Source: a virus | Taxonomy: Duplodnaviria > Heunggongvirae > Uroviricota > Caudoviricetes | IMG/VR virus record: IMGVR_UViG_2721755646_000014 | Reading direction: 5' to 3' (one strand) | Length of the DNA: 45,219 bases | Shown here: one piece after another, positions 22,500 to 26,015 of the stretch | Layout of the letters: every line of letters begins with the position of its first letter | Position numbering within the stretch: the stretch's first letter is position 1 | Program-made: the position numbers and the translations under genes | The notes under the pieces: generated by a model | The model's database searches: none | Told to the model about the DNA's origin: nothing | Seen by the model: the letters and a program-made list of their open reading frames with translations, nothing else

Positions 22500-24161
22500 T
22501 TATATGAAAAAAACCGCATATTCTTTCTTTTTCGGTTCCGGGTTAAGGGACATCAGGGAGACCGCATTGAACAGCGCCATCAGCGGGTCAATTTTTCCCC
22601 GTCCACTGGCCTGTTTGGTGATAAGAATGGCGTTACCTTTAGGCTCCACCCGGGCATTGCCGACACACCAGGCCATCAGGGGCTGGTCACCATGCACCAG
22701 CACCCCTTCAGCCAGTTTGCGCTCGGTGGTTTTAATGGCCCCGCCCAGTTTCCAGCCCTGGCTTATCCCCACCACAATTCCGTCGGGGATCCCGGCTTCC
22801 GCCAGTGAATCCAGAATCTGCCCCACCCCTGACGGGTCAATACCGATATGGTCCAGTAACTCAGCCTCATGAATGCGACGCACATATTCCGCCACTTCCG
22901 CCGTGTCATCCCCGACACGCCGGACAATGGTCATATCTCCACAGGCAACAAGATCCTGAAACCGGGACGCCTCGCTCTTCCGTCGGACCACCGCGGTTTC
23001 ATGCGCCCAGGCATGGCCCCAGCCCAGCCATTCGCGGGTTTCCCTGTCACGGCCAATCACGTACATTCCCAGCAGATCATCCAGGCCCCCGCCGTCAATC
23101 CCCACCGTCACCACATCAGCGCGCTGCAGGATATCGTCCAGGCTGACGCGCCTGCCCTGCTGCTCCCAGAAATCCGCACCCGCCCAGCGGTCAGAACGCA
23201 GGGCAAGACCAATTTCCACATTGGCATGTTTTGACATGAAGCCACGAAATGCTTCCTCACCAGCCTCCCGGGCTTTACGGTACTCCCGGTACAGAAAAGC
23301 CTCATCCACCGAATAACCGAGATTCGGGTTAACCATGGCGAGGTTTTCCATCAGCAGGTGAGCCCCGCTTTCCACCATTTCAGGAGGATGCTCAAAAATC
23401 ACCGGCAGAAAGTGCGGATCATGAATTTTGCCGTCACGGACATCCCGGGCGTACTGCAGTTTCTGTCTGAACACCCCGGCTGGCGGCTCATTCGACTGGG
23501 TGGTCGTATACACCACAAACCCTTCCGGGCGGGAGGCAAGGCCGCCTATGGCTTCACGTAACATGTCCTCCGCTTTGTACTGCTTGCCAAATAACCACAG
23601 TTCATCAATCAGCGTCCCCACGGACTTGATACCGGATACCGTATTCGGATCGGCAGCCACCACCTTCAGGGTGGTGTCCGTCACCCTGTGGGTGATGGTC
23701 CGGATATGTGTCTGCACCTGACAGAGGTCATCCAGATCATCGTCCCGTCGTACCATATCCCTGGCAGGGTTGAAGGCGTTAGCCGCCACCTCCACGGTCG
23801 GGGCCAGAATGGTGTAGCCCGCCGCCTGCCGCCAGTTCAGTAACAGCGCCGTCATCATGATCCCGGCAGCCAGCGTGGACTTGCTGTTTTTCTTGGGGAT
23901 AAGGATAAAAACTTCCTTGATATGGCGTACACCGGTCTGCGCATCGTAGGAGCCAAACAGGGCCGCCACCAGGTCAAACACCCACTGTGCGCAGGACTCC
24001 CCGAACGTCGGGCTGCCCGGTGCATCCACAATCCGCAGTTGTTTAAAAATCGCCAGGGCATGTGCGGCCTGCTCCGGATAAATCGGAGCCGGAATAATCG
24101 ACAGCCCCTTTTTCAGGCGCTCTGCCCAGTCCGGGCAGGCCGTGCTCCACACAGGTATCAT
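22500..24161 (-). CDS. Terminase large subunit
   Basis: 553-aa intact ORF; 4-bp overlap with the upstream small-subunit gene; identification by sequence recall and position. Confidence 0.8.
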   Translation of the reverse strand: MIPVWSTACPDWAERLKKGLSIIPAPIYPEQAAHALAIFKQLRIVDAPGSPTFGESCAQWVFDLVAALFGSYDAQTGVRHIKEVFILIPKKNSKSTLAAGIMMTALLLNWRQAAGYTILAPTVEVAANAFNPARDMVRRDDDLDDLCQVQTHIRTITHRVTDTTLKVVAADPNTVSGIKSVGTLIDELWLFGKQYKAEDMLREAIGGLASRPEGFVVYTTTQSNEPPAGVFRQKLQYARDVRDGKIHDPHFLPVIFEHPPEMVESGAHLLMENLAMVNPNLGYSVDEAFLYREYRKAREAGEEAFRGFMSKHANVEIGLALRSDRWAGADFWEQQGRRVSLDDILQRADVVTVGIDGGGLDDLLGMYVIGRDRETREWLGWGHAWAHETAVVRRKSEASRFQDLVACGDMTIVRRVGDDTAEVAEYVRRIHEAELLDHIGIDPSGVGQILDSLAEAGIPDGIVVGISQGWKLGGAIKTTERKLAEGVLVHGDQPLMAWCVGNARVEPKGNAILITKQASGRGKIDPLMALFNAVSLMSLNPEPKKKEYAVFFI

Positions 24162-24721
24162 CCGTTGCCCTCATTATCATTATTCACCACCAGGCGGGGT
24201 GGTGGTGGCACCGCAAAACGGTTAGCCGCTTTTTTCGCCGCGTCACCTTTTGCCGATTTTTTACCGGCATCCCCTTTTTTGTGGTGCGTGAACTGCGCCA
24301 GCTTATAAGCCGCATCCAGCGCCAGCCTGGGGTCGGTATTAATGTTCTCCACCAGAAGACGCCCCATCGCTTTCACCGGATCGGGAAGACCGTCCTCCAT
24401 ATACTCAATACCAGGAGATATCACCACGGGCGGTGGCATCTCCGGATTTGTTTCGTCCGGCTGTGGTATTGCAGCCGCCTCACGGCGACGGGGTTTATCC
24501 TCCTGCTCTGATTTTTTCTGCCGGTAAACAGGAACCTCATCCACCTCCACCGTCTCGCATTGTTTACGGGCTATAAACGCAAGCACCTCAGGATCTTTTG
24601 CCAGCTGCGAGCCTTTAACCCTGGCGGTCTTCGCCGAATAACCGGCGGCAATGGCTGACGCTGTTTTGTTTTTCCCGGACATGAGCGCCAGCGCAAATTT
24701 TCGTTTTTGCGTTGTCAGCAC
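24158..24721 (-). CDS. Terminase small subunit
   Basis: 187-aa ORF directly upstream of and overlapping the large subunit; basic, Lys/Ala-rich C-terminus. Confidence 0.65.
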   Translation of the reverse strand: MLTTQKRKFALALMSGKNKTASAIAAGYSAKTARVKGSQLAKDPEVLAFIARKQCETVEVDEVPVYRQKKSEQEDKPRRREAAAIPQPDETNPEMPPPVVISPGIEYMEDGLPDPVKAMGRLLVENINTDPRLALDAAYKLAQFTHHKKGDAGKKSAKGDAAKKAANRFAVPPPPRLVVNNDNEGNG

Positions 24722-25011
24722 AGCCTCCTCCCGGGTCCAGAACGCACTCAGCCGGGTATGGTTCAGCCCATTTTTCCCGGCATCTCATGCCGCAAATGTT
24801 AACTGCTGCCTGGTTAACATTTGCTGAAAAAGCCAGTTAACATTTTTTCCGCACAACAAACTGAATAATAAAGATAAAAACCGCAAAAATGCCCGGACAG
24901 CCAGTTAACATGTTAACTGCCCTGAAACGGGAATTTTTTCTCTGCGTGAGAGGGGGCGCGGTGTCCGGAGCGATCGTTTTTTTCGCCGGATGATCCCCCC
25001 CCCGGGGCGGG
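24722..25011. promoter_or_regulatory. Putative cos / packaging-initiation region with repeated GTTAAC-containing motifs
   Basis: Between the HNH and TerS genes: tgttaactg, ggttaacat, agttaacat, agttaacatgttaactg, plus a C9 run at 25000-25008. Confidence 0.35.
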
Positions 25012-25377
25012 TCACAGTCCGATGATATCGTCTGCCCTGCCATGACCTCCGGACACCTCCGGCAGCGTCGGGTCCGGCATACCACCCGCCGCTTCACGAG
25101 CAGACTTTTGTCGATGGCATTCGGTACAGAGCGTCCAGAGATTCGTCTCCTCATTACCACCACCGAACTGAAGTGCAATTCGGTGATCGAGTTCACTGTC
25201 ACAGAGGTCAACCACACGACCACAGAGACAGCACTGCCCGGCATCCCTGAGCCAGATATGACGCTTGAGGGAAACACGTGCACTGCCACTGACACGACGC
25301 TGTTCACCCTTCAGAATATTCACCCGCCGGGTGTTCAGAGTTTTGATTCTGCCCGGTAACGTACGAAGCACAGCCAT
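25012..25377 (-). CDS. HNH endonuclease (packaging-associated)
   Basis: 121 aa with CxxC…H…N…CxxCH arrangement (…GQCCLCGRVVDLCDSELDHRIALQFGGGNEETNLWTLCTECHRQK…); position next to cos/TerS. Confidence 0.8.
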   Translation of the reverse strand: MAVLRTLPGRIKTLNTRRVNILKGEQRRVSGSARVSLKRHIWLRDAGQCCLCGRVVDLCDSELDHRIALQFGGGNEETNLWTLCTECHRQKSAREAAGGMPDPTLPEVSGGHGRADDIIGL

Positions 25378-25418
25378 GTAAAATCCTCGCCATATAGCTT
25401 GTCACCAGAGGAAAGAAA

Positions 25419-25604
25419 ATGTCATCGAAAAACCGGCCCCGCAGAACAACAACCCGCAACATCCGATTTCCAAACCAGATGATTGAACAGATCAATATCG
25501 CCCTTGAACATAAAGGTTCCGGTAACTTTTCAGCGTGGGTTATTGAAGCCTGCAGAAGAAGGCTGTCAACAGAGCGTTCGGGTATGAATTACATAATTAA
25601 GTAA
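25419..25604 (+). CDS. YlcI/YnfO-like small prophage protein
   Basis: 61 aa (MSSKNRPRRTTTRNIRFPNQMIEQINIALEHKGSGNFSAWVIEACRRRL…); resemblance to DLP12 YlcI is from memory. Confidence 0.45.
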   Translation: MSSKNRPRRTTTRNIRFPNQMIEQINIALEHKGSGNFSAWVIEACRRRLSTERSGMNYIIK

Positions 25605-26015
25605 CATGGTGTTCACAGAACACACAGTTACCGGACACATCAGTTTTCCATTCGTCCCCCGGCAGTACAGGCTTCCCGTCTGACGGGATAGCCTGAAAAA
25701 ACACAGAAAATTATTTGTTATAATTAATATAACTTACTCAAAAAAAAGCGACGAGAAAATCAGCATCAACGAGCAATAAGCGCCAATACGTGATAACAAA
25801 TGGCAGCCATATTTATCTGCAGTATAAGCAATGGACAGGATAACCACACCAGAAACCGTCAGCATAAAATCCATTTGAACTTCCCCGGACAAAATCGACT
25901 CATCTAAAGATTTACAGCTCTTTTTATTATCAATATGTTAAAAGTAAAATAAACAGATGTTCAATAATACGAATACAAAAACGTGCTGAAAATCAATGAA
26001 TCCATTTCTGTGTTA

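Follow-up and report, generated by a model that had tools for sequence, protein, structure and literature searches.

What is the 290-bp stretch between an HNH endonuclease gene and a small-terminase gene, and why does the short motif GTTAAC recur in it? The question was raised by a piece of viral DNA of 45,219 nucleotides, called here the window, in which the late genes lie on the minus strand in the order HNH, terS, terL, and in which positions 24722-25011 are exactly the HNH-terS intergenic region. A first-pass annotation had proposed that this interval is a cos region of the HK97-like kind, with at least five GTTAAC-centred repeats as plausible binding sites for the small terminase (TerS); the orientation of the genes and the predicted position of the cut, at 24951-24960, are added here. 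The reading we favor, to which we would give a probability of roughly three in four, is that the interval is the complete cos site of a long-tailed Stx-family prophage of the BP-4795/1717 type, and that the five GTTAAC-centred repeats are putative TerS recognition sites.

The proposed arrangement of HNH, cos and TerS is supported by the order of the Pfam families as well as by the mapped 3' cos of a near-identical phage, Lys8385Vzw (PMC7946995). The HNH gene (25012-25377, minus strand; 121 aa) lies directly upstream of cos in the direction of transcription. Its product scores 29.7 bits with Pfam PF01844 (cut-off 21.4), shares 97.5% identity with the "DNase" of Lys8385Vzw, and has homologs upstream of terS in 21 distant loci. 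On the other side, terS (24158-24721, minus strand; 187 aa) starts with the GTG at 24721, preceded by a Shine-Dalgarno sequence, GGGAGGAGG (24724-24732, minus strand), that can be read directly from the DNA. TerS has an N-terminal helix-turn-helix (HTH) of the Terminase_2, or SF6-G1P, type: the match to PF03592 Terminase_2 (35.7 bits, cut-off 26.1) covers residues 2-57 only, with no match of the C-terminal part to that Pfam model, and the profile of the TerS family matches the DNA-binding domain of the SF6 small terminase (4zc3, 2cmp, 3zqp) with E = 3e-4 to 8e-4. The next gene, terL (22500-24161, minus strand; 553 aa), has the Pfam TerL_ATPase and TerL_nuclease domains and is followed by a prohead protease-capsid fusion (20499-22436, minus strand). 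TerS and TerL are 97.9% and 98.7% identical to the proteins of Lys8385Vzw. Divergent from these genes, and just upstream of HNH, the window encodes a 61-aa DUF3950 protein (25419-25604, plus strand; PF13132, 70.9 bits), which looks ribbon-helix-helix-like.

The interval is far from being a rarity. Its counterparts between HNH and terS in the long-tailed Stx phages BP-4795, 2851, 1717 and YYZ-2008, and in many Stx1a, Stx2a and Stx2c phages as well, share 95-100% identity with it. Of 5426 complete E. coli genomes, 1277 (about a quarter) contain the region, some of them as many as seven times, and its carriers include the long-tailed Stx1 and Stx2 prophages of O157:H7. Among the matches listed for the complete E. 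coli genomes, no annotated feature lies under it. The annotations of terS itself differ between public records: in Lys8385Vzw (L124, 185-793) the gene is annotated from a CTG, 45 nt upstream of the GTG with the strong Shine-Dalgarno sequence, and the record of vB_EcoS_phi330 (L001) is cut inside terS. The boundary of the latter record was considered as a possible terminus and rejected; it is accompanied by a generic note and gives no evidence of termini.

The position of the cut can be predicted from relatives with mapped ends. Lys8385Vzw, an Stx1 phage that was induced and purified, was assigned by PhageTerm to the HK97-type 3' cos class, with CGCCCCCCCT at the genome end (PMC7946995). Its record ends with GGACACCGCCCCCCCT and starts with CTCACGCAGAG (in the longer reading, it ends with GATCGCTCCGGACACCGCCCCCCCT and begins with CTCACGCAGAGAAAAAATTCCCGTTTCAGGGCAGTTAACATGTTAACTGG), and both lie inside sequence homologous to the interval. 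Because the record of this near-identical phage ends and starts in homologous sequence, the 10-nt 3' cohesive end (cosN) of the window, CGCGCCCCCT, is predicted at 24951-24960 on the minus strand, with nicks between 24961 and 24960 and between 24951 and 24950. The minus strand of the window reads GATCGCTCCGGACAC, CGCGCCCCCT, CTCACGCAGAGAAAAAATT across this site, and by homology the packaged genome has its +1 at 24950 and runs from there towards terS. The cut is anchored a second time, and independently, by the Acinetobacter phages fEg-Aba01 and fLi-Aba03, the TerS of which is a homolog of the window TerS. The 10-nt 3' cohesive ends of these phages, CGCCCCCCAT, were found by PhageTerm and confirmed by a gel assay of heated and cooled restriction fragments (PMC7354433). 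The fLi-Aba03 record starts with CGCACGCACAAAAAAAATTCCC and ends with GGGGGG, 35 nt, GGACAC and CGCCCCCCAT, the last 10 nt being annotated as the 3' cohesive end. In addition, the record of Burkholderia phage Bcep176 has its boundary exactly 10 nt upstream of the homologous +1. The phages with record ends at the homologous site were found by protein search; a blastn search for distant matches to the cos region of a relative in the phage collection gave no further phage record ending there. Among close relatives the cohesive end occurs as the alleles CGCGCCCCCT, CGCCCCCCGT and CGCCCCCCCT. The cut in the window is placed by homology rather than from virions of this prophage, and the termini of the Stx phages come from one PhageTerm analysis.

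Two other possibilities for the termini were rejected. Headful (pac) packaging is contradicted by the PhageTerm 3' cos of the near-identical phage (PMC7946995) and also by the annealable ends of the homologous Acinetobacter phages (PMC7354433). The cos of SfV/SfI, TGCCCGCCCC (PMC3636060), resembles ACCCGCCCC at 25004-25012, beside the HNH stop codon; this stretch was rejected as the cut site because it is poorly conserved among relatives and the mapped ends fall elsewhere. Judged by the homologous ends, the packaged DNA of the prophage family is one genome unit with 10-nt 3' cohesive ends, as in HK97.

The predicted cut is embedded in a conserved core. The homopolymer C9 that the first-pass annotation had counted among the features of the interval is indeed there, at 24995-25003 (G9 in gene orientation), but it falls on the side of the HNH gene, ~34 nt before the cohesive end and away from the putative TerS sites. 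In 90 distinct close relatives the run is anywhere between 7 and 12 long. Nor can the exact figure of 9 be relied on, as long-read-type indel errors occur elsewhere in the window. Such errors are seen in a perfect tandem duplication of ~7 kb (9299-16268 and 16265-23338) that runs through head and tail genes to the middle of terL: its two copies differ by 0 substitutions and 70 small indels across 7075 aligned columns, 69 of the 70 being losses of 1-4 nt from copy 1 that fall for the most part in homopolymers and break its ORFs. The duplication has the appearance of an artefact of long-read assembly and not of a biological feature, and because of its indels homopolymer lengths in the window, that of the C9 included, are unreliable. 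All Enterobacterales and Burkholderiales relatives have a G-run of 6-9 equally far from the cut, and a G-run is also present in the satellite islands described below and in fLi-Aba03; it is possibly a cosQ-like element or one used by TerL or HNH. The stretch between the G-run and the HNH stop codon is the most variable part among close relatives. From the G-run to the cut runs an upstream flank (24961-24994, minus strand) with CGATCG and GGACAC (24966-24961), and the latter stands directly before the cohesive end in nearly all relatives, the satellites and fLi-Aba03. On the terS side, +1 to +31 of the packaged genome is CTCACGCAGAGAAAAAATTCCCGTTTCAGGG (24920-24950, minus strand), with an A-tract at 24934-24939 (+12 to +17). 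Phages and satellites share the conserved pattern CTCAYGCR.AGAAAA(A/T)TT, and this segment is therefore not tied to one type of TerS.

One group of prophages has lost the integrity of this core. In the PPompW prophages (L162, 2775-4233; PPompW_132418) an IS110-family element, ISEc20, is located inside the C/G-run of cos, at a position homologous to ~24999 of the window. Beyond the ISEc20 come tRNA genes and Q, with HNH and the lysis genes absent. Unaided, the PPompW prophages are probably unable to finish packaging.

We now turn to the repeats. The first-pass count of at least five GTTAAC-centred repeats was accurate: the interval contains exactly five GTTAAC, at 24798, 24813, 24836, 24904 and 24912. 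The whole 45-kb window has 16 copies where shuffles lead one to expect 8.1, 11 of them spread over the remaining ~45 kb outside the interval, and all five in the interval fall within 120 bp, a span for which our own arithmetic gives an expectation of ~0.03. The repeat unit is longer than the hexamer, too. The 10-mer ATGTTAACTG occurs exactly four times within 24796-24919, against ~0.09 exact copies expected by chance in the window. The sole other exact copy in the window, at 35776-35785, lies between ORFs ~11 kb from cos and is probably there by chance.

Counted from the cut, the five GTTAAC start at +34, +42, +110, +133 and +148, all between the cut and terS, and the repeated motifs span +34 to +153. 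The proximal site, CAGTTAACATGTTAACTG (24902-24919), is a perfect 18-bp palindrome with half-sites at +34 and +42 and a putative TerS site. It is separated by an A/T-rich spacer (24846-24901, minus strand) from three distal sites: site 3, CAGTTAACATTT (24834-24845; GTTAAC at +110), the core of which is invariant in the 90 distinct relatives; site 2, TGGTTAACATTTGC (24811-24824; +133); and site 1, GCAAATGTTAACTG (24792-24805; +148). Sites 2 and 1 are the two arms of a 12-bp inverted repeat with a 9-nt spacer (24792-24824). The spacings of the sites, 8, 68, 23 and 15 bp, have no simple helical phasing. A weak IHF-like match, ATTCAGTTTGTTG, with one mismatch, is present in the A/T-rich spacer at 24854-24866, and such matches are at chance frequency in the window (76 versus 67 expected).

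Among 90 distinct sequences, 86-99% identical and taken from a pattern scan in which the distal sites were not used for selection, variation was found in 5 of the 38 columns of the distal sites, all five at the edges, compared with 61 of the 173 other columns of the leader (p = 0.007, Fisher test); none of the GTTAAC cores varies. An unbiased sample of 79 loci, chosen by protein and not by the sequence of the palindrome (a search of viral contigs gave close relatives only), tells the same story: the 18-bp palindrome is intact in 76 of the 79, and all five GTTAAC are kept in 78. Judged by this pattern of substitution, the distal sites are under purifying selection.

Comparison with the cos sites of relatives, which the first-pass annotation had named as a check, can be carried much further out. 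We used 29 distant relatives of TerS, 28-49% identical and encoded in genomes of Enterobacterales and Burkholderiales, together with Salmonella phage FSL SP-016 and the mapped phages. These share a common layout that reads, in gene orientation, as the HNH stop codon, a G-run of 6-9, ~34 nt ending in GGACAC, a 10-nt C-rich cohesive end, CTCACGCACAGAAAAAATTCCC, and a GTAAAC/GTTAAC double hexamer at +34. The first repeat is at +33 or +34 in the lineages examined, leaving a gap of 33 nt from the cohesive end. In the Enterobacterales relatives GTAAAC is at +34 and GTTAAC at +42, and in most of them the GTAAACATGTTAAC at +34 contains the start of terS (ATG TTA ACA, Met-Leu-Thr), with a leader of 39 nt. 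In the Stx lineage the start of terS, GTG CTG ACA, lies 190 bp farther downstream, and the palindrome is still at +34/+42; the added stretch contains the A/T-rich segment and the three more half-sites at +110, +133 and +148. Because the palindrome stays at +34 after the terS start has moved, it is in register with the cut and not with the start of the gene. Non-coding versions are found in other lineages: GTTAAC at +36 in Proteus, GTTAAA at +34, +47 and +58 in fLi-Aba03, and TTGTTAAC-N5-TTGTTAAT in Burkholderiales, in prophages of the Bordetella group. GTTAA-type repeats are in this way conserved at the same distance from the cut down to ~30% TerS identity, with the caveat that in most relatives one GTTAAC doubles as the Met-Leu-Thr start of terS, so that coding could explain part of the conservation. 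A lack of the motifs in relatives, named in the first-pass annotation as grounds for refutation, is thus not what the comparison shows.

Two further observations belong to this comparison. In the palindrome of the window, the ancestral ATG of terS now begins an ORF of no more than 24 codons, MLTGCPGIFAVFIFIIQFVVRKKC (minus strand, from 24911 downwards), and a second copy of ATGTTAACTGGCT (minus strand, from 24842 downwards) begins one of 9 codons; both ORFs are probably relics of the displaced terS start. In most of the Enterobacterales relatives (L126-L145) there is also an extra GTAAACAT box ~24 nt upstream of the predicted cohesive end, on the HNH side, which takes the form GTTAAC in L139 and GTCAAC in L143-L145, and where the window lineage has GCGAAAAAAAC. 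By analogy with pacL and pacR of SPP1, boxes of the TerS type would then flank the cut in these relatives.

The overlap with the start of terS gives rise to an alternative explanation of the extra copies. The cos site could be real and the GTTAAC copies non-functional, left over from duplications of the ancestral 5' end of terS (ATG TTA AC, Met-Leu-Thr) when ~190 bp were inserted in the Stx lineage. The palindrome does contain the terS start codon in most relatives, and the proximal site and one of the distal sites share 16 nt of flank, AGCCAGTTAACAT(G/T)TT, which suggests a duplication; the close relatives, moreover, are 86-99% identical, so that their conservation carries limited weight. We nevertheless regard this explanation as unlikely, since the cores of the distal sites are invariant while the surrounding leader varies (p = 0.007), non-coding GTTAA-type repeats at +34 to +58 are present in the Proteus, Acinetobacter and Bordetella-group relatives, and the long leader of the satellite L159, a parallel case, holds a motif of its own seven times. 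Duplication accounts for the origin of the extra GTTAAC copies, but not for their selective conservation or for the parallel leader of L159.

The most telling comparison is with elements that are not phages. Four TerS homologs (P0061, P0053, P0090 and P0085) are located in small, satellite-like islands. These islands (L155-L158 and L167 in E. coli, L159-L161, L250 and L248) have an integrase gene, a replication gene of the AlpA or primase/AAA_25 type, terS and a capsid-like gene, and one of them is inserted beside yejM/narP-ccm. No terL or HNH was called on the contigs of L155-L159 and L167; in L248 a TerL_nuclease gene follows downstream, and this element may be more complete. The islands keep the cos core of the phages: G7-9, ~30 nt, GGACAC, CGCCCCCCGT or CGCGCCCCCT, and then CTCAT.C..AGAAAA. 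In L155, for example, cos is at 2376-2480 and terS at 2501-2989. The C-terminal half of the island TerS resembles that of the window TerS, and the recognition helix reads KGWQL or KGYQL as against KGSQL. At +33, in place of GTTAAC, the islands have GTTACAC: two direct copies in L155 (+33 and +45), one in L248 (~+33), and in L159 and L250 seven GTTACA(C) sites over a 228-nt leader with an A/T-rich spacer, which parallels the 229-nt leader of the window; the spacer of L159 is similar to that of the window.

The helix and the repeat go together. KGSQL is paired with GTTAAC, KGWQL or KGYQL with GTTACAC, and GARL or GSRL with GTTAAA or GTTAAT, a co-variation that comes from few independent helix types (Ser versus Trp/Tyr, plus GARL/GSRL). 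At the level of sequence, the repeats co-vary with the DNA-binding domain of TerS, and the elements that the TerL and HNH of a helper would need to read are constant. That the repeats change with the TerS helix while the cos core stays the same is the strongest available argument that the GTTAAC repeats are TerS sites. Together with the fixed +33/+34 register, it gives substance to the first-pass suggestion of plausible TerS sites, and the most likely role of the repeats is that of landing sites for the small terminase.

The same comparison bears on a reading closer to HK97, in which TerS would read the A-tract segment at +8 to +22, CAGAGAAAAAATTCC, and GTTAAC would be the context of the terS translation start or a binding site for a host or accessory protein. 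HK97 is the only HNH-type cos system that has been structurally solved, and its TerS has as minimal site a single 15-bp site at +15 to +29, over the A-tract (PMC11331095). The A-tract segment is also the most widely conserved part of the region studied here. However, the window TerS is a Terminase_2 protein with an SF6-type HTH and has no match to the HK97 TerS; the A-tract segment is unchanged in satellites with a different TerS helix, whereas the repeats at +33 change; and the palindrome has kept its distance from the cut after terS moved away. On these grounds we consider recognition of the A-tract by TerS quite unlikely.

Short inverted and direct repeats are typical of operators as well, and the repeats could in principle bind another protein, such as the DUF3950 protein (25419-25604), the 61-aa gene of which is ~400 bp away, or a host nucleoid protein that regulates the expression of terS or the late genes. 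A weak plus-strand promoter-like match overlaps two of the sites. That match is 9 of 12, which is chance level, and a scan of 24500-25700 for promoters and terminators gave chance-level hits only, with none on the gene strand inside the interval. A tblastn search over 2.5 kb around terS found no DUF3950 homolog in any of ~35 distant loci in which the motif is retained, and the motif co-varies with TerS. An RNA element was also rejected, as the fold of the 229-nt leader is unremarkable (z = -1.1) and an Rfam search at permissive E-values gave no match. An operator function is, in our judgment, very unlikely.

Taking the repeats as TerS sites, one can picture how the cos site would work. A TerS oligomer would bind the palindrome and the distal cluster through its N-terminal HTH domains, recognizing the half-site ATGTTAAC, and the A/T-rich spacer, which is probably bent, would let both clusters contact one and the same oligomer. 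The palindrome and the distal cluster would in this case be the counterpart of lambda cosB in position and layout. The C-terminal part of TerS would recruit TerL, and the bound TerS would place TerL on the cut 33 bp away. TerL, with the adjacent HNH, would then nick the strands 10 nt apart at 24951-24960 to give the overhang CGCGCCCCCT. Packaging would run from 24950 towards terS and the head genes and stop at the next cos. The G-run, GGACAC and the CTCACGCAGAGAAAAAA segment would be read by components of the helper type (TerL/HNH); alternatively, the side with the G-run and GGACAC, which would be packaged last, may act at termination in the manner of lambda cosQ.

How does this compare with the systems that are already known? 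HK97 has the same order of HNH, cos, terS and terL, a 10-nt, G+C-rich 3' overhang followed by an A-tract, and a TerS that binds downstream of the cut on the terS side, as proposed here. Its TerS is of a different family, the window TerS having no detectable match to HK97 gp1; it uses one site at +15 to +29 as opposed to the proposed GTTAAC half-sites repeated over +34 to +153, and the conserved G-run ~34 nt upstream of the cut sets the window apart from it. The likeness to the HK97 cos is functional, not familial. Lambda cosB (R3-I1-R2-R1; gpNu1, IHF) has multiple repeats recognized by an HTH protein between cosN and the small-terminase gene, as is proposed here, and in both cases an A/T-rich stretch divides the repeats, two of which are inverted relative to each other, with a leader of ~200 bp. 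The differences are that the overhang of the window is 3' and 10 nt (5' and 12 nt in lambda), that an HNH partner is involved, that there is no sequence similarity and that the IHF site of the window is only putative. The pac systems of SPP1 and SF6 (G1P, Terminase_2) have a homologous N-terminal HTH and repeated short boxes that flank the cleavage site, similar to the GTAAAC/GTTAAC box that relatives of the window have ~24 nt upstream of the cut; those phages package headfuls from pac, while here the ends are precise and cohesive, as mapped in relatives.

The closest systems are Lys8385Vzw and fEg-Aba01/fLi-Aba03, which have a homologous cos core with the ends CGCCCCCCCT and CGCCCCCCAT, respectively, for CGCGCCCCCT, the same G-run and GGACAC, and repeats from +34. 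The papers on these phages report the 10-nt end only, with no repeats and no wider architecture. Cos sites of this type are familiar, and for two relatives the 10-nt end is already in print. The repeat architecture, the fixed +34 register and the co-variation with TerS were not found in the searchable literature, and literature searches for the overhang sequences, and for GTTAAC together with terminase, returned nothing relevant. The feature itself is an ordinary cos site that has so far been without annotation.

The hybrid cos of the satellites is the more interesting lead. Redirection of packaging by satellites is known from SaPI TerS, the cos-SaPIs and Rpp of the E. coli PICIs; L155 and L159 likewise combine a helper-like cos core with a TerS of their own, which suggests redirection of the helper terminase. 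Different from the SaPI and PICI cases, the change of specificity in L155 and L159 appears to lie in the hybrid cos, a point that concerns these related loci and not the window. No description of such a hybrid, with the cosN core kept and the TerS repeats swapped, was found in the literature searched. From their sequences, the islands may have Stx phages of the BP-4795 type as helpers, the terminase of which they, as satellites, would redirect. We would go one step further, tentatively and at somewhat below even odds, and propose a readable code, in which the variable residue of KGxQL (Ser versus Trp/Tyr) would go with GTTAAC versus GTTACAC repeats at exactly 33-34 bp from a shared cut, and PICI-like satellites of Stx-type phages would carry a hybrid cos, the G-run and cosN core of the helper combined with TerS repeats of their own, through which their own TerS would bring the helper TerL and HNH to satellite DNA.

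With the exact cut and the likely TerS sites in hand, the genomes of Stx phages can be oriented correctly, and prophages with a still usable cos can be predicted, the PPompW prophages with the insertion in their G-run being the counterexample. The cos site also helps in interpreting transduction and the mobilization of satellites by Stx phages. HK97, so far the one model worked out in detail, has a TerS of another kind, and the natural variants seen here offer a system for studying a small terminase of the HTH type in an HNH-dependent 3'-cos machine. Should the recognition code be true, the packaging specificity of Stx phages and their satellites would be predictable, and could be reprogrammed, from sequence.
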